From positions 216,229 through 280,228 of the forward strand of contig JAQTZF010000001.1 of NCBI GenBank assembly GCA_028687915.1: DNA of 64,000 nucleotides, in the 5' to 3' direction. The notes under the pieces were generated by a model, which saw only the letters and a program-made list of their open reading frames with translations, did not search any database and had not been told where the DNA came from. The position numbers and the translations under genes are program-made. Source of the DNA: Candidatus Daviesbacteria bacterium. Its GTDB lineage: Bacteria; Patescibacteriota; Microgenomatia; Daviesbacterales; UBA10151. Positions 3,905 through 55,631 of this stretch are shown here, one piece after another (position 1 is the stretch's first letter; the number at the start of each line of letters is the position of its first letter).

Positions 3905-4987
3905 ATGAAATACGATACTCAAGTTTCCCAAATCCAACCGGCTATAACTGGAGCACAAAACATTTTAATTGCTATTCCTACTGAAGTTACAATTGACCGT
4001 TTAGCTTCTGGGTTAGCTCTGTATTTATCTTTAAAAACTGCTGGGAAAAATGTATCAATTGTGACAGATGGAGTTTTAACAGTTGGGTTTACTCATCTTT
4101 TTGGAATAGGAAATGTTAAAAATACTTTGCCTCAAAACTCGAGTGGTGATTACACAATTACTTTAGGTAATGTTGTTGCCCCTGATGGGCATATTCCAGC
4201 TTTGCAAAACCTGGATTGGGCACCTGCAGGTAACACTAAATCAGATTTAAAGCTAACCTTTCATGTTAATCCGGGACAAAAATTTGAACCCACTTTTGTA
4301 ACACCTGCACATGAAGGTGGAAACTTTGACCTAATTATTACAATCGGTGCAAATACCTGGTTATCACTTGGCTCTATTTATGCCAACAGTTCCCAAATGT
4401 TTACTAATACTACAATTTTAAATATTGATAACCAGTCAGAAAATACAAATTATGGACAAATAAATTTGGTTGATGGAGAGGCTTCTTTATCTGAGATCAT
4501 TGGTTTATTATTACCAGCCTTAAATTTACCATATGAGGCAGATACTGCCAGTAATATAATTGCAGGGCTTTATGATAAAACTCAAGGTTTGCAAACAGCA
4601 GGAGCTGATACTTATGAGGTTATGGCTCAAGCTTTAAGAGTTGGTGGACAAAAGCCATCCAATAGTTCAAATACTGCTCCAATGTCTGAGCCAGCTGCTC
4701 AGGCAGCTTCTACTACTGGTATGCCTGCATGGGTAGATGCTCCAGCACCGATTCAATCAGAGACATCTACTATCTCAAGTTCATCACAAGGTTTAAATAT
4801 TAGTCCTTTTCTAAATCCACAGAACTTTTCTGTTGATACTACTGCTGCTTCTACACCTCAACCAGAAATACAGCCTCAACCACAACAATCTGCAGAAGAA
4901 GTACCAATGGGTGAGCAAGCACAAACAACTAGTCCGGAAGCTGATTGGCTAACACCAAAGATTTTCAAAAGCAGCAAAATCGGTTAA
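3905..4987 (+). CDS. DHH-family (NrnA/RecJ-like) phosphoesterase-fold protein with substituted catalytic residues, plus an S/T/P/Q-rich low-complexity C-terminal tail
   Basis: Collinear with NrnA: ILIAIPTEVTIDRLASGLALYLSL compares with IILHRHVRPDPDAYGS…. The DHH motif is replaced by NIDNQSE (compare KIDHHPNED), so motifs I-III lack their Asp/His residues. No DHHA1/GGGH domain. Last ~120 aa are low complexity. Confidence 0.6.
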   Translation: MKYDTQVSQIQPAITGAQNILIAIPTEVTIDRLASGLALYLSLKTAGKNVSIVTDGVLTVGFTHLFGIGNVKNTLPQNSSGDYTITLGNVVAPDGHIPALQNLDWAPAGNTKSDLKLTFHVNPGQKFEPTFVTPAHEGGNFDLIITIGANTWLSLGSIYANSSQMFTNTTILNIDNQSENTNYGQINLVDGEASLSEIIGLLLPALNLPYEADTASNIIAGLYDKTQGLQTAGADTYEVMAQALRVGGQKPSNSSNTAPMSEPAAQAASTTGMPAWVDAPAPIQSETSTISSSSQGLNISPFLNPQNFSVDTTAASTPQPEIQPQPQQSAEEVPMGEQAQTTSPEADWLTPKIFKSSKIG

Positions 4988-38253: not shown

Positions 38254-38478
38254 ATGGATGCAAAACTGAAAGCAGAAAAACTGAAAATGTGGCAGGGAAA
38301 ACTCAAAAAACTCCAAGATGAGTTGGAAGCTATCATGGTCAGACGCGGGGAGGCTATTGCTATGGGTGATTTATCAGAAAATGCTGCTTTTTCTATGGCT
38401 GAAGAAGATGCAATTACCTGGAGAGTCAGAATTGAAGAGATTGAAAAGATCATTAAAACCATTGAGGATACTAAATAA
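38254..38478 (+). CDS. GreA/GreB N-terminal coiled-coil domain-only protein (74 aa), a mini-Gre factor with no C-terminal FKBP-like RNAP-binding domain
   Basis: …[39 protein letters not shown]… aligns to E. coli GreA 22-75 (…[33 protein letters not shown]), including the tip acidic D and E. The TAA stop overlaps the fusA ATG (TAATGG). Confidence 0.6.
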
Positions 38479-40619
38479 TGGCTGTTACCACCAAAACCAA
38501 GAGGGATTTCCCTTTGGATCAAATCCGTAATATTGGAATTATTGCCCACATTGATGCGGGAAAAACCACCACAACTGAAAGAATCCTTTTTTATACTGGT
38601 AAAACTTATAAAATCGGAAATATTGATGAAGGAACCACAGTTACTGACTGGATGGAGCAGGAAAGAGAAAGAGGAATAACTATTGTTTCTGCTGCCATTA
38701 CTACTTTTTGGACTCCTAAGACAGGTCCCTATAAAGATCAGGAGACCAGAATTAACATTATTGATACTCCCGGACACGTTGATTTTACAGCTGAAGTGGA
38801 AAGATCCCTTCGTGTACTTGATGGAGGTGTAATCGTTTTGGATTCAGGTTCAGGTGTGCAATCCCAAACAGAAACAGTCTGGAGACAAGCAAATAAATAT
38901 AAAGTTCCGCTTATTGCTTTTGCAAATAAAATGGATGTAGTGGGAGCAGATTTTTTAGCTACTATTCAATCAGCTAGAGATAGATTGGGAGCTAATGCAA
39001 TTGCTTATAACTTACCAATTGGTAGTGAAAATGATTTTAAAGGAGTAATAGATTTATTAACCCAAAAAGCTTTTGTATGGGAAGGTAATGATACCGGAGC
39101 TAATTTTAATGAAATAGATATTCCTGCAGATATGGCTGACGCAGTAAAAGAGCATCGTGAAAAATTAGTTGAAGAAATCTCTGGTACAGATGATGTGCTG
39201 ATGGAAAAATATCTTGGTGGAGAAGAAATCTCTGTTGAAGAACTTAAAAAAGCTTTGCGAAAAGCAGTAATTAATAATGAAATTGTGCCTGTTTTGGCTG
39301 GATCATCTCTTAGAAATAAAGGTGTGCAGCAAATGCTTGATGGTGTTATTGAATATTTACCTTCACCACAAGATGTTAATGAAATTGTGGGAGAAAATCC
39401 TGCTACAAAAGAACAAGAAGTTAGAAACGCTGATCCTTCTGCACCATTATCTGCTTTAGCTTTTAAAGTTCAGGTTGATCCTCACGTTGGAAAGTTAACT
39501 TTTATTCGAATTTATTCCGGAACCCTAAAATCAGGTTCATATCTTTATAATTCCACCAAAGATATTAAAGAAAGAATTGGCCGTCTTATGTTAATGCATT
39601 CTAATGACAGAGAAGAAATTGAAGAAGCATATGCCGGAGAAATTGTGGCTGCAGTTGGTTTAAAAGACACTATTACCGGTAACTCTATTTGTGATGAAAA
39701 CAAACCTATTATTTTGGAATCAATTAATTTCCCAGAACCTGTTATTTCACTTGCCATTGAACCAAAAACCAAATCAGATCAGGAAAAATTAGGTTTAGCT
39801 TTATCAAGGCTTTCAGAAGAAGATCCTACTTTTAGGGTTAAGTCTGATCATGAAACAGGTCAAACCATTATTTCCGGAATGGGAGAGTTACAACTTGAGA
39901 TTTTAGTGGATAGAATGAAGAGGGAATTTAAAGTGGAAGCTAATGTTGGTCAACCACAGGTAGCATATAAAGAAACTATTCAAAAAACAGCCACAGGAGA
40001 AGGAAAATACATCAGACAAACCGGTGGTCGTGGTCAATACGGACATTGTTGGCTTAGAATTGAACCGCTTCCTCGTGGTTCCGGACGTGAATTCGTTTCA
40101 GAAATTGTGGGAGGAGCAATTCCCCGTGAGTTTATTGGTCCAATTGAAAAAGGTGTAATTGAAAAAGAAGACACAGGTATCCTTGCTGGTTATCCTGTAA
40201 CTGATATTAGGGTAGTTGTTTATGATGGATCTTTCCATGATGTTGATTCATCTGAGGTATCCTTTAAAATTGCAGGTTCTTTAGGTTTGTCTGAAGCAGC
40301 ACATCAAGCAGACATGATTTTACTTGAACCAATCATGAAAGTTGAAGTAACAACACCAGAAGAATTCCTCGGTGATATGATTGCAGATTTATCTTCCAAA
40401 AGAGCTCAAATCTTATCAACTGAGATGAGAGGAAATGCCAGAGTAGTATTAGCACTTGTTCCTTTGGCAGAAATGGGTGGTTATGCTACTTCAATTAGAT
40501 CAATGTCTCAGGGAAGAGCTACTTATTACATGGAAGCTGATCATTATGAACCAGTGCCATCAAATGTTACCCAAAAAATTATTGCAGATTCAGGCTTCAC
40601 AGGCCGTATTGAACACTAA
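38478..40619 (+). CDS. fusA: Elongation factor G
   Basis: [23 protein letters not shown], 713 aa. str-operon position. Confidence 0.96.
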
Positions 40620-40642: not shown

Positions 40643-41407
40643 ATGGAATTTCTTTGGTATATTTTAGGCCCGTTATTTTTATTTTTTCTTCTTACCAGTT
40701 TAAGAGTGGTGCAAGAATATGAACGGGGAGTAATCTTCTTTTTAGGGCGATGTACCGGGGTTCGTGGTCCGGGTTTAATTATTTTAATCCCTATTTTAGA
40801 AAGAATGATGAAGACAACACTTAGAACCATTACCATGGATATTCCTTCCCAAAAGATTATTACTAAAGATAATGTTTCAATTGATATTGCTGCTGTTGCT
40901 TATTATCATATTGTTGACCCACAAAAATCAGTGGTGGCAATTGAAGATGTTTATTCGGCTGTAAATCAAATTTCCCAAACTACAGTCAGAAATGTAGTGG
41001 GACAATTTATGTTGGATCAATTATTGGCAAAGACTAGTGAAATTAACACCCAGATTAAAAACGTAATTGATACTCACACTGAACCTTGGGGAGCAAATGT
41101 TACTGCTGTTGAAATTAAGGATATTATTTTACCTGATAATATGCAAAGGGCTATGGCAAAAGAAGCAGAGGCAGAGAGAGAAAGAAGAGCAAAAATTGTG
41201 GCTGCAGAAGGAGAATTTCAGGCTGCACAAAAGCTAGGGGAAGCAGCAGACCTTATAACCAAGCATCCAGTAGCCTTACAACTTAGAACCTTACAAACCA
41301 TGGCAGAAATTGCAACGGAAAAGAACTCTACTATTATTTTCCCAGCTCAGTTTATGGGTACAGTACAAGAAGCGATCAGAACTCTGGCTAAAGATGCTTC
41401 AAAATAA
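40643..41407 (+). CDS. SPFH/band-7 (stomatin/prohibitin-like) membrane protein
   Basis: N-terminal transmembrane segment, …[15 protein letters not shown]…, …[24 protein letters not shown]… are typical of the SPFH family. Inserted between fusA and tuf. Confidence 0.8.
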
Positions 41408-41502: not shown

Positions 41503-42687
41503 ATGGCAGACGCAAAAAAATTTGATAGATCTAAACCACACGTTAACATTGGTACAATGGGCCACGTTGACCATGGAAAAACAACCTTAACTGCAGCTAT
41601 TACTGCTGTCTTAGCTTCTAAAGGTTTAGCACAAGCACGATCAATTGATCAAATTGACGCAGCCCCAGAAGAAAAAGCCCGCGGAATTACAATTAATATT
41701 TCCCATCAGGAATACGAAACAGAAAAAAGACATTACGCCCACATCGACATGCCAGGACACGCTGATTATATTAAAAACATGATCACTGGTGCTGCACAAA
41801 CTGATGGTGCAATCTTAGTAGTTTCTGCTCCAGATGGTCCAATGCCACAAACCAGAGAACATATCTTACTCGCAAGACAAGTTGGAGTTCCAGCAATTGT
41901 TGTTTACATGAACAAAACTGATCAAGTTTCTGATCCAGAATTATTAGACTTAGTTGAAGAAGAAATCAGAGATCTTCTTAAGAAATATGAATATGATGCA
42001 CAATCTCCAATCGTTCGTGGTTCTGCTAAAAAAGCATTAGAAGGCGATGCAACAGCTATTAAATCAATCGAAGACTTAATGGATGCAGTAGATAGCTGGA
42101 TTCCAACCCCAACCAGAGACACAGACAAACCATTCTTAATGGCTGTTGAAGATGTTTTCTCTATTAAAGGAAGAGGAACAGTTGTAACCGGAAGAATTGA
42201 AAGAGGCAGAATTAAAGTTAATGAAGAAATCGAAATCGTTGGAATCAGACCAACCAAGAAAAGTGTTGTAACAGGTATTGAAATGTTCCATAAATTACTT
42301 GATGAAGGTCAAGCAGGTGATAATGCTGGTATTTTACTCCGAGGAATTGAAAAAGATGATGTTGAACGTGGTCAGGTTTTAGCTAAACCAGGTTCAATTA
42401 CACCTCATTCTGAATTTGAAGCAGAAATTTATGTTCTTTCCAAAGAAGAAGGTGGAAGACACACACCATTCTTTAAAGGTTACAGACCACAATTTTATGT
42501 TAGAACCACAGATGTTACTGGTGAAGTTATCTTACCAGAGGGTGTAGAAATGGTTATGCCAGGAGACACCACTAAAATTAATGCAAAACTTATTACACCA
42601 GTTGCAATGGAAGAAGGACTTCGATTTGCTATCCGAGAAGGTGGTAAGACTGTCGGAGCTGGAGTTATTACTAAAATAAATAAATAA
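41503..42687 (+). CDS. tuf: Elongation factor Tu
   Basis: [27 protein letters not shown]. 394 aa. Confidence 0.97.
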
Positions 42688-42716
42688 AAATAAGTAATAA
42701 CTTATAAGCAATAAAG

Positions 42717-42737
42717 AGGGCGAAAAGCCCTTTTTTG
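42717..42737 (+). terminator. Rho-independent terminator after tuf
   Basis: AGGGC-GAAAA-GCCCT hairpin (42717-42731) followed by TTTTTTG. Confidence 0.55.
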
Positions 42738-42792
42738 TTTCTTATAGAAGTTTTGTGTTAAAATAATTGCACTTTGATAGGAAAATTAATTT

Positions 42793-43101
42793 ATGGCTAA
42801 AGGACGTATAAGAGTCAAACTAAAAAGTTATGATCACAGAGTACTCGATTCAACAGTCGAGCAGCTTTTGGATACTGCTTTACGTACTGGTGCTAAAATT
42901 GTTGGTCCTATCCCACTTCCTACTAAAACTTCCAGATTTACAATGCCAAGGTCTCCTTTTACAGATAAGGATTCTCAGGAAGCATTTGAAATCAAAATTC
43001 ACAAAAGATTAATTGAAATTGTTGAACCAACAGATAAAACTATTGATTCACTAATGCATTTAGAACTCCCTGCAGGTGTAGATATCGAAGTAAAAATGTA
43101 A
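42793..43101 (+). CDS. rpsJ: 30S ribosomal protein S10
   Basis: MAKGRIRVKLKSYDHRVLD…VGPIPLPTK…FTMPRSPF…. Confidence 0.95.
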   Translation: MAKGRIRVKLKSYDHRVLDSTVEQLLDTALRTGAKIVGPIPLPTKTSRFTMPRSPFTDKDSQEAFEIKIHKRLIEIVEPTDKTIDSLMHLELPAGVDIEVKM

Positions 43102-43145
43102 CCTTCTTTTGCACTTTGGTGTAAATAGGTTATAAAAGACGTGTT

Positions 43146-43354
43146 ATGAGTAATACTGAACAAGAAATCCTTTAGTAGAAGTTCAAACAATATTACGTGA
43201 TGATTCTGAACATACAGAAGCAAAATATGATAGATTTGATGTTTTTGCTCCTTTTAGAGCCAAGAATCCATTAGAAAGATTAAACGAGTTACAAAAAAAG
43301 CTAGAGAATCAAATAGTTGAAGATGTTTATCCTGATAAAGTAGAAAATTTATAA
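43146..43354 (+). pseudogene. Candidate gene remnant: a 9-codon ATG ORF (MSNTEQEIL*) followed in the -1 frame by a 64-codon open frame lacking a start (…VEVQTILRDDSEHTEAKYDRFDVFAPFRAKNPLERLNELQKKLENQIVEDVYPDKVENL*)
   Basis: The two frames abut at 43173-43177. Combined they would encode ~70 aa. No canonical start in the longer frame. Confidence 0.25.
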
Positions 43355-43383
43355 GTTCTTTTTCTCCATTGTTTTTTAAGGCT
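43347..43383. repeat. Imperfect 37-bp direct repeat, copy A (32/37 identical to copy B at 43847-43883)
   Basis: ATTTATAAGTTCTTTTTCTCCATTGTTTTTTAAGGCT versus ATTTATAGGATCTTTTTCTCCCTTGCTTTTTGAGGCT. Exactly 500 bp apart, same orientation, bracketing the minus-strand ORF 43407-43757. Confidence 0.5.
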
Positions 43384-43406
43384 AATTCGCAATGTTTAAA
43401 CAAACC

Positions 43407-43757
43407 TTAGTGGATGCTTAAGGCAACCATTACTAACAGAAAAAAAGATCCGGAAATTAAAGCCAAAGTTGAAACGACAATAAGTGTTACTCCTAAACCA
43501 TAAGCGTCGTCCATTACTGATAAATCCAAATTATTTGATGTTAATTTAAAAGCAGATTTTAAATTATAAATTCCTATAATAGTAAAAAGTATAAACGGAA
43601 TAATATAACGCAGATCGAAAGAGGGGATTTGATGAGGTGGATTCAGAAAAGAAAACAAAAGAGAAATAATGACGATGAAGGTAATTATTAAGGGAATTAT
43701 TCCTTCAATTATTCCAAAAAGAAAATTTATTATACCGACTGCTTTATACTTATCCAT
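43407..43757 (-). CDS. Hypothetical polytopic membrane protein (116 aa, 3-4 transmembrane segments)
   Basis: Strongly hydrophobic ORF on the opposite strand inside the rpsJ-rplC gap, flanked by the direct repeats. Confidence 0.5.
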   Translation of the reverse strand: MDKYKAVGIINFLFGIIEGIIPLIITFIVIISLLFSFLNPPHQIPSFDLRYIIPFILFTIIGIYNLKSAFKLTSNNLDLSVMDDAYGLGVTLIVVSTLALISGSFFLLVMVALSIH

Positions 43758-43846
43758 AATTTTATTAAAACACTTTCAAAATTACTTTTCTAGACATGAT
43801 AAAGTTTACGCAATATGGTAACTTTTACTAGATGACGCACACTGAG

Positions 43847-43883
43847 ATTTATAGGATCTTTTTCTCCCTTGCTTTTTGAGGCT
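43847..43883. repeat. Imperfect 37-bp direct repeat, copy B
   Basis: See copy A. Confidence 0.5.
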
Positions 43884-43920
43884 GTTTTGTGCTAAAATTA
43901 TTAAGCAAGAAAAATATTTT

Positions 43921-44014
43921 CAGTAGATCGCACGTCGTACTTCATTAAAAGCTACGCCCGATAAATCGGATGTAGAGAAGATAGATACGGTGATTCAATA
44001 TAAGCGATGTACTG
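43921..44014 (+). ncRNA. Candidate structured cis-regulatory leader RNA upstream of rplC
   Basis: Closing helix CAGTAGATCGC (43921-43931) / GCGATGTACTG (44004-44014), 10 of 11 bp. Nested helices CTTC/GAAG (43940-43 / 43977-80), CTAC/GTAG (43952-55 / 43972-75) and hairpin CCGA-TAAA-TCGG (43958-43969). Immediately followed by an intrinsic terminator. Confidence 0.3.
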
Positions 44015-44037
44015 GGTCGGGTTTCGACCCTTTTTTG
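44014..44037 (+). terminator. Intrinsic terminator / attenuator hairpin 14 nt upstream of the rplC start
   Basis: GGGTCG-GGTTT-CGACCC then TTTTTTG. Confidence 0.5.
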
Positions 44038-44050
44038 TGTTTAAAACTAT

Positions 44051-44833
44051 ATGATAGATACATTATTTGGTATAAAAAAGAATATGACAAGTGCATACGA
44101 TGCTCGTGGTAGACGAACAGGTGTTACTGTGCTTCAAATTCAACCAAACGTTGTTACGCAGGTAAAATCGTCTGATGGAAAAGATGGTTATGATGCTGTG
44201 CAACTCGGAACTGGTATAAAGAAATCAATTAAAAAACCTCAAATTGGTCATGCTAAAAAGGCTGGAGTTGACGCTAAAATTCGTTGGTTTAGAGAAGTAA
44301 GAACAACAGCAAATGTTCAGGCAGGAGAAATTATTGAAGTAGGAAAAGTTTTTGCTAAAGGAGATTCAGTTAAAATAACAGGAACTTCTAAGGGAAAAGG
44401 TTTTCAGGGTGGTGTCAGACGTCATGGCTTCCATGGAGGACCAAAAACTCATGGTCAATCAGATAGACACCGCGCTCCTGGTTCTATTGGTTCTGGTACA
44501 ACTCCTGGAAGAGTCTTAAAGGGTAAAAAGATGGCTGGTCACATGGGTAATGACACTGCAACTGCTAAAAATTTAGAAGTAATTGCTGTAGATAAAAAAG
44601 AAAATTTGTTGATTGTTAAAGGTGCTGTTCCAGGATATGTTGGAGCCTTAGTGCAGATTACAAAAACAGGACGAATTAAGGGTTACACTCCACCTCCAGA
44701 AGAGAAACCAGAAGAAGAGGAAGAAGGATCAGAAGACCAGACAGTCACAGAACCAGTAGAGTCAGCAACAGAAAATACAGAAACACCTGCAGAAAATACT
44801 ACTGAAGTTATGGAGGACAAGGAAAATGCCTAA
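44051..44833 (+). CDS. rplC: 50S ribosomal protein L3 (with acidic C-terminal extension)
   Basis: …GIKKNMTSAYDARGRRTGVTVLQ…GKGFQGGVRRHGF…. Confidence 0.93.
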   Translation: MIDTLFGIKKNMTSAYDARGRRTGVTVLQIQPNVVTQVKSSDGKDGYDAVQLGTGIKKSIKKPQIGHAKKAGVDAKIRWFREVRTTANVQAGEIIEVGKVFAKGDSVKITGTSKGKGFQGGVRRHGFHGGPKTHGQSDRHRAPGSIGSGTTPGRVLKGKKMAGHMGNDTATAKNLEVIAVDKKENLLIVKGAVPGYVGALVQITKTGRIKGYTPPPEEKPEEEEEGSEDQTVTEPVESATENTETPAENTTEVMEDKENA

Positions 44834-55562: not shown

Positions 55563-55631
55563 TATTGAGTTGAAGTTTCTTCAACTCATAGTCTTGTAAT
55601 TTGAGGCTATTTTTGTTAAAATTATAAATCG

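Follow-up and report, generated by a model that had tools for sequence, protein, structure and literature searches.

We analysed a stretch of 64,000 nucleotides (nt), here called the window, that is part of the ~1.1-Mb genome of a Candidatus Daviesbacteria bacterium from the Candidate Phyla Radiation (CPR), and focused on the 949-bp spacer that separates rpsJ, coding for ribosomal protein S10, from rplC, coding for ribosomal protein L3. In this spacer, two imperfect copies of a 37-bp sequence bracket a gene for a small membrane protein. We found that the second copy is the upstream half of the predicted rplC-operon promoter, and that the first is probably a truncated relic of that promoter. 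The explanation that we favour, and to which we give about an even chance, is that the relic would mark the place where recombination joined two variants of a hypervariable spacer. On this view, the pair is not a classical target-site or attachment-site duplication.

A preliminary description of the locus had read the repeats as the footprint of an insertion or of site-specific recombination. The elements that it listed are all present, namely the remnant of an open reading frame (ORF), a membrane ORF at 43407-43757, and the two 37-mers, which repeat detection places with their starts exactly 500 bp apart and which are identical at 32/37 positions. The idea of an insertion holds insofar as the small ORF and the membrane gene are both extra with respect to the closest relative and the membrane gene is indeed bracketed by the repeats; it does not hold for the repeats themselves, which are promoter halves and not the ends of an element.

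A Logan contig from run SRR22315507 (L161) is 100% identical to the window along 4742 nt, a stretch that takes in the two repeats as well as the frameshift of the small ORF, and it shows the occupied form of the site only. Since this contig comes from a second assembler, the arrangement and the frameshift are not artefacts of one assembler; it may derive from the same reads, and therefore speaks against an assembler artefact without being an independent confirmation of the sequence.

The two copies and the predicted rplC promoter

Copy 2 (43847-43883, plus strand) contains an UP-like stretch, a -35 box (TTGCTT, 43869-43874) and the first part of the promoter spacer, and is directly followed by GTTTTGTGCTAAAAT. 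The whole predicted promoter (43869-43898, plus strand) consists of this -35 box, an 18-nt spacer and an extended -10 element, TG-C-TAAAAT, at 43890-43898. This architecture, with a -35/-10 spacing of the sigma-70 type, is kept in the closest relative and across the rplC upstream regions of Daviesbacteria, and promoter activity is predicted from consensus and conservation.

The closest relative that we could identify, locus L001, has an S10 that is 98% identical at the protein level (88.6% in DNA) and an EF-Tu that is 96% identical at the protein level. A comparison with relatives for an empty site had been proposed in the preliminary description, and L001 provides one: its rpsJ-rplC spacer is only 239 bp long, harbours neither the small ORF nor the membrane gene, and contains one 37-mer (ATTTTATAGGTTGTTTTTCCTCTTGCTTTTTGAGGCT) at 4358-4394, directly upstream of TGCTAAAAT. 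This 37-mer abuts GGTTCGTGCTAAAAT, after which comes the leader of rplC. In L001 this single copy makes up the upstream and -35 portion of the rplC promoter; copy 2 is therefore its orthologue and the resident block of the predicted promoter in the window.

Copy 1 (43347-43383, plus strand) includes the UP-like stretch, a -35 box degraded to TTGTTT and the spacer part, and has no usable -10 element: no acceptable -10 box is present at 16-19 nt, and the most suitable hexamer, TTTAAA, is found at a distance of 20 nt and does not have the key A2 and T6. The sequence that follows 43383 shows no resemblance to the -10/leader region, copy 2 or L001 in Smith-Waterman comparisons against shuffled sequences. 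With L001 as an outgroup, 4/5 of the differences between the copies fall on copy 1, including the change of the -35 box from TTGCTT to TTGTTT. Copy 1 is thus probably a promoter relic, and a presumably inactive one.

The repeat itself is specific. A degenerate pattern of the 37-mer, allowing up to three mismatches on both strands, has two sites only in the 64 kb, with 0 expected from 100 shuffles, and the next-best ungapped match to either copy within the window is of 25/37. A dispersed intergenic repeat of the REP or MITE kind would be expected in many copies, and the 64 kb contain these two. The longest identical run between the copies measures 11 nt (TCTTTTTCTCC), and the upstream 21 nt, which do not belong to the promoter consensus, are identical at 19/21 positions. 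Smith-Waterman comparisons against shuffles revealed no similarity on either side of the 37 bp and no third copy. Two candidate extensions, a partial third copy right after rpsJ and a continuation of copy 1 through the -10 box, were rejected by the same approach, and a 12-nt match to L001, CCTTCTT(T/A)TGCA, is marginal only (reached in 68/2000 shuffles). Parts of the 37-mer recur at other promoter-like sites: the -35/spacer part TTGCTTTTTGAGGCT fits the promoter pattern at 42735, at 55594 and across Daviesbacteria, and the spacer motif TTTGAGGCT is found again in the site at 55594.

The two edges of the repeat differ in nature. BLAST homology between the window and L001 runs from 43848, the left edge of copy 2, through the leader and into rplC, so that the left edge of the 37-mer is the edge of the conserved promoter block. 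Upstream of copy 2, and on both sides of copy 1, the sequence resembles neither L001 nor the other copy to a significant degree, and for this reason the right edge of copy 1 represents a breakpoint.

A hot spot for accessory genes between rpsJ and rplC

The rpsJ-rplC spacer is a hot spot for variable, accessory genes in Daviesbacteria. An S10-based retrieval from species-representative genomes yielded 80 loci, almost all from Candidatus Daviesbacteria or Microgenomates (CPR), in which rpsJ and rplC are 74 to 2478 bp apart, or more than 3.8 kb apart where rplC comes only after the next genes. For 53 Daviesbacteria species, we took as the size of the spacer the distance between the rpsJ stop codon and the first position of the conserved leader: it is of at most 150 nt in 16, leaving room for the promoter only, and of more than 400 nt in 35. 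With a median of 568 nt, the 816 nt of the window are typical, and the assumption of the preliminary description that S10 and L3 are normally adjacent is false for Daviesbacteria.

The genes found in these spacers are unrelated to each other. They include GIY-YIG nuclease-like, DUF3276, sigma-70 region-4-only, Hsp70-like, PIN, signal peptidase, matrixin and AAA_14/DUF4143 proteins, along with assorted small membrane proteins. The finding of the same arrangement without repeats in relatives had been named in advance as evidence against an insertion marked by repeats, and this is in part what we observed: about 35 relatives carry inserted genes, and none of the ~43 tested (those whose leader could be located by a regular expression) has a repeat of the promoter block. 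We found no literature on the rpsJ-rplC junction or on the rplC leader in CPR.

Duplicated flanks of another kind are present at the same site. In at least six relatives, the last 30-65 nt of rpsJ are clearly present a second time, as partial direct duplicates downstream of rpsJ (L002, 4871-4935; L009, 1169-1217; L023, 2640-2687; L027, 1752-1817; L046, 4963-5016; also listed are L031, L068, L072 and L080), and in three of them (L002, L023 and L046) these bracket inserted genes. Over five loci the copies differ by 46 synonymous and 6 non-synonymous codon changes, and such mostly synonymous differences are expected if one copy comes from the functional rpsJ of another lineage. An intact 15-codon mini-ORF, MHLELPAGVDIEVKM*, is kept in four of these five loci. 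In L072, a 78-nt unit that includes the end of rpsJ occurs in three tandem copies that are 100% identical.

We also observed that the genes directly following rpsJ, or following its duplicated 3' end, are mutually unrelated, start ~18 nt past the stop codon and share MVE or MVD as their first residues (ATGGTAGAA...), as seen at L002 4941, L005 4313, L014 4322, L043 4327, L046 4327 and L062 4327. Based on these common starts, the junction with the conserved flank may lie just inside the beginning of the downstream gene.

Concerning other close genomes, a search of metagenome contigs gave no closer relative than L001, the best additional one having an L3 that is 69% identical. Genomes that encode an S10 protein identical to that of the window are more distant in DNA (81% identity). 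In these genomes (L162, 3962-4333; also L163, L165 and L166), the rpsJ-rplC spacer harbours a 123-aa gene with a weak match to Y1 transposases (IS200/IS605-type), together with two unannotated ORFs.

Proposed origin of the probable relic and competing explanations

The reading that we favour starts from a conserved block made of the rplC promoter, a structured leader and an intrinsic terminator/attenuator, which begins at 43847 and of which the 37-mer is the first 37 bp. Two versions of the spacer would have existed, one with the small ORF beside the promoter and the other with the membrane gene in that position. One end of an exchange between them would have been anchored by homology in a conserved flank (leader/rplC or tuf/rpsJ), and the other joined illegitimately inside the promoter, at 43383/43384. 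The outcome would be a truncated promoter copy left as a scar, with rplC still attached to an intact promoter. What suggests a join between two spacer versions is the combination of a left edge that coincides with that of the conserved block and a right edge that is an abrupt break. The flank duplications of the rpsJ 3' end at the same site in relatives provide a precedent for such a scar.

Scars of homology-facilitated illegitimate recombination have been described in naturally transformable bacteria, and bacterial chromosomes are known to have hot spots where accessory genes accumulate between core genes that are conserved. The present locus resembles these cases in that a species-variable segment lies between conserved flanks, namely the 3' end of rpsJ and, across the segment, the rplC promoter with its leader, and in that partial duplicates of the conserved flanks lie at the inner edge of inserts. 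It differs in its position within the tuf-S10-spc ribosomal-protein cluster, whose gene order is usually one of the best conserved in bacteria, and in that the mechanism is here a proposed one.

Several points weigh against a recombination joint. Among the ~43 relatives, the duplicate of the promoter block is confined to the window and is therefore a single case. Synonymous divergence (dS) from L001 is high throughout, at 0.5-1.0 on both sides, with no clear jump across the spacer and hence no phylogenetic sign of an imported segment. Neither a donor lineage nor an intermediate state was found in the collections searched. The count of 37-mer copies covers the 64 kb of the window out of the ~1.1 Mb of the genome, and promoter, transcription start and termination are consensus predictions. 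Finally, a duplication in situ that arose as the segment was inserted would leave the locus looking just as it does now.

This last scenario is a serious rival, even if we consider it unlikely. Repair or replication, through filled staggered breaks or template switching, would have inserted the membrane gene and duplicated the 37 bp, and copy 1, freed from selection, would then have decayed. The direct repeats do bracket the insert exactly, with both edges sharp; the excess of changes on copy 1 is what a relaxed copy would show; and the tandem triplication in L072 is a recent duplication at the same locus. However, this scenario does not account for the match between the left edge of the duplication and the limit of conservation across species, and it needs at least one further event, as the small ORF upstream of copy 1 is also absent from L001. 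Moreover, we know of no transposition mechanism that yields a 37-bp duplication.

A weaker rival, which we regard as decidedly improbable, is that of a mobile cassette, in which a 500-bp unit (the membrane gene plus one 37-mer) was moved by a site-specific recombinase encoded elsewhere and the 37-mers are the halves of an attachment site. Imperfect direct repeats around a single gene that looks promoter-less, the empty site of L001 and the uptake of different genes by the spacer in different lineages all fit with this view, and the recurrent rpsJ 3'-end duplicates of relatives resemble integration into the 3' end of a gene. The 11-nt identical run would suit a small att core, but is also expected of a decayed or allelic duplicate.

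Against a cassette, the hallmarks of mobile elements are missing. The segment between the copies (43384-43846, 463 bp) contains the membrane ORF only, and no transposase domain was detected in it with Pfam, PHROGs or NCBIfam; neither in it nor next to it is there any transposase or integrase, the neighbours being tuf, rpsJ, rplC and rplD. A search for inverted repeats over 42700-44300 found no terminal pair joining ~43384 and ~43846. The GTTRRRY core is absent from the sequence, folding of both copies on both strands gave no attC-like hairpin and nothing notable otherwise (z between -0.84 and +1.40), and no intI/attI/Pc platform is adjacent, the genes at hand being ribosomal. No tRNA or tmRNA gene was found that could serve as an integration target. 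The repeat is a resident promoter with two copies in 64 kb, phage and plasmid collections contain no DNA similar to the spacer, the membrane gene gives no sign of travelling, as it was met in no other genome among ~15 billion predicted proteins, and ~35 relatives have inserts, such repeats being present in none of those tested.

As in the target-site duplications of insertion sequences (IS) and transposons, direct repeats immediately flank a segment that is absent from a relative; but these duplications are of 2-15 bp and identical, whereas here they are of 37 bp and 86% identical, inverted repeats and transposase are lacking, and the repeat is a promoter half with its left edge at the limit of conservation. 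The locus shares with integrase att sites and integron attC sites a single small gene between imperfect direct repeats, and the presence of different genes at the site across lineages; it departs from them by the lack of a nearby integrase and of a hairpin, a core of at most 11 nt, two copies only in 64 kb, and a cargo that is unique. The repeats are probably not the footprint of transposition or site-specific recombination that was originally proposed.

A broader proposal, which we hold to be improbable, is that the spacer, and the rpsJ 3' end in related Microgenomates, would be a dedicated gene-capture site where recombination copies a conserved flank, with the pair in the window as one instance. 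The copied flank would be either the last 30-65 nt of rpsJ, with its mini-ORF, or the rplC promoter block. If true, newly arrived genes would inherit a ready-made expression signal in the most highly expressed region of the chromosome.

Less probable than the mobile cassette, in our view, is that both copies are functional, copy 1 being selected for example as the binding site of a regulator shared with the rplC promoter, or as a weak antisense promoter against the membrane gene. The 86% identity of the two copies is close to that of copy 2 with its L001 orthologue (~87%, with one gap), which is under selection, and the near-identity of the upstream 21 nt could be taken in the same sense. Yet an acceptable -10 box is missing from copy 1, both its -35 box and the conserved spacer motif are altered, and a second copy is present in no relative tested. 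Chance resemblance, or the convergence of independent promoter-like sites through the promoter consensus of an AT-rich genome, is very unlikely and is the least probable explanation of all: part of the 37-mer (TTGnTTTTTgAGGCT) is indeed a common promoter motif, also present at 42735 and 55594, but the non-consensus upstream 21 nt are nearly identical, the best other match is far poorer, and 0/100 shuffles match.

A conserved leader RNA upstream of rplC

The conserved block that begins with the promoter continues into a Daviesbacteria rplC leader RNA (43918-44036, plus strand), with helices P1, P2 and P3, a lineage-specific apical insertion and an intrinsic terminator. The stem of the terminator lies at 44014-44030 and is followed by a T6 run to 44036, ending 14 nt before the ATG of rplC according to a terminator scan. 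The minimum free energy of the leader is -36.6 kcal/mol (z -3.15).

We could align well 43 distinct Daviesbacteria leaders, which share P1 (CAGUA/UACUG), P2 (AUCGC/GCGAU, the second strand being GYGAU in degenerate form), P3 (CGU..C / G..ACG) and the terminator stem as inferred helices. In this alignment 91.7% of the cells are paired, vs 22-51% when the partners are slid; nine pairs display double-sided changes, and 0/500 shuffles reach the observed covariation score. Two pairs of P2 switch between CG and UA, one in 9 sequences and one in 11. Positions 11-14 of L034, which form the 5' strand of P2 and read UCGC (UUGU in variants), pair with either 34-37 or 44-47, the distal partner being GCGA, and both partners covary with them. 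The two pairings may be mutually exclusive, as in a switch.

A covariance model of the leader gives exactly one match in each of 56 sources out of the 100 searched, namely the window and 55 loci, always on the coding strand and just upstream of rplC, with no match in the outgroup loci from outside Daviesbacteria. The match in the window is at 43918-44035 with 53.7 bits, and that in L001 at 4430-4532. The leader of the window is the most divergent of the typical ones, with an apical insertion and a different terminator stem. Rfam returned nothing credible in the spacer, in eight Daviesbacteria loci or in six outgroup loci.

The segment 43918-44036 thus has a conserved structure with covariation in the 5' untranslated region of a ribosomal-protein operon, and its location and architecture make it a candidate for a ribosomal-protein attenuator. 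In E. coli, the leader of the S10 operon mediates transcription attenuation by L4. The Daviesbacteria leader is similar in that a promoter, a structured leader of ~90-140 nt and an intrinsic terminator a few nt away precede an operon coding for L3, L4, L23, L2 and others. It differs by its location upstream of rplC and not of rpsJ, by the lack of any sequence or structure match in Rfam, and by the P2 5' strand with its two covarying alternative 3' partners. We know of no study of ribosomal-protein autoregulation in the phylum of Daviesbacteria.

Some variation around this leader may be mentioned. Microgenomates other than Daviesbacteria (L050, L065, L068-L072, L075) possess a different conserved leader with a terminator ~100 nt upstream of rplC, of the form …ATGTTAGTAGSCCCTAAACTC…GGATGTAGGG…, which has no Rfam match either. 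The apical insertion of the window leader contains a similar TCGGATGTAGAG motif at 43975-43990, possibly by coincidence. In L014 (~4766-4965), the 5' part of the leader, TTTTCAGTAGATCGCGCGTC, is followed by ~180 nt in place of the usual 3' half and terminator; these may encode a short peptide with Cys pairs before rplC, and the leader may have been interrupted or remodelled.

Gene content and organization of the locus

The membrane ORF, annotated at NCBI as hypothetical protein PHQ59_01390 (43407-43757, minus strand), codes for a strongly hydrophobic, polytopic protein of 116 aa. An equally long stop-free run arises in ~1% of spacer shuffles (51/5000) and the codon score is highest in its own frame, and it is probably a real gene. 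A word-index search among 5.8 billion clustered proteins and a phmmer search over 1.84 billion representatives gave self-matches only, an exact-sequence look-up returned no record, and the cargo is so far unique to its genome among the ~15 billion proteins considered in all. A likeness of its N terminus to membrane proteins of L047 and L049 was discarded as not significant (E about 0.01 in a tiny database).

The small ORF remnant (43148-43354, plus strand) begins with an ATG at 43148 and reaches a stop at 43175-43177 after nine codons, beyond which the -1 frame is open. This frame comprises 64 open codons (43160-43351, with the stop at 43352-43354), has no start codon, and shows gene-like codon usage (0.31 bits/codon). 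No homologue was found in the word-index protein search. For both spacer ORFs, Pfam, PHROGs and NCBIfam gave nothing above noise, and a local comparison with 121 ORFs from the spacers of relatives was not significant.

A stable hairpin lies over the stop codon of rpsJ (43097-43134, -14.7 kcal/mol, z -3.08) and is followed by a U-run on the minus strand only. In such an orientation, it may terminate the transcript of the minus-strand membrane gene and spare rpsJ an antisense run.

The genes around the spacer are fusA (38478-40619), an SPFH/Band-7 gene (40643-41407), tuf (41503-42687), rpsJ (42793-43101, plus strand; Pfam Ribosomal_S10, E 9e-35) and rplC (44051-44833, plus strand; Pfam Ribosomal_L3), whose product carries an acidic C-terminal extension. 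Downstream of rplC come rplD and then the remaining S10/spc cluster. The terminator scan placed a tuf terminator at 42713-42735, directly before a predicted rpsJ promoter (42735-42764, plus strand) that consists of TTGTTT, an 18-nt spacer and an extended -10, TGTTAAAAT, and that is a pattern match whose function is proposed from the consensus. This promoter and that of rplC have 74% similarity over 34 nt (repeat family D2). The promoter-like sites at 42735-42764, 43869-43898 and 55594-55622 are all located before ribosomal-protein genes and follow a common pattern, TTGnnnTTTGAGGCTnTTTT(G)TGnTAAAAT, to which the rpsJ site fits less closely. As judged from these predicted signals, tuf, rpsJ and the rplC operon each appear to be under their own promoter as separate transcription units, and this may be why insertions between them are tolerated.

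The SPFH/Band-7 gene is itself a clean insertion, located after fusA and before the promoter of tuf. L001 does not have this gene, and the spacer between fusA and tuf in L001 aligns with that between the Band-7 gene and tuf in the window. We sought flanking repeats around this gene and found none. The rpsJ-rplC spacer of L019 holds a 77%-identical Band-7 homologue, indicating that the same gene occurs at different unit boundaries of the cluster in different species.

Significance

The repeat provides no evidence of a new mobile element and is most simply a scar in a variable spacer, in itself a minor point. The locus around it is more informative. The ribosomal-protein supercluster, whose synteny makes it a widely used set of markers in CPR phylogeny and binning, is split in Daviesbacteria into units that would be separately promoted, and accessory and orphan genes frequently land at the boundary between rpsJ and rplC. 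Partial duplicates of conserved flanks, such as those of the rpsJ 3' end and of the rplC promoter, could mark past recombination in uncultivated bacteria. This hot spot, together with an rplC leader that is not listed in Rfam and is a candidate for the autoregulation of ribosomal proteins, is more notable than the repeat itself.

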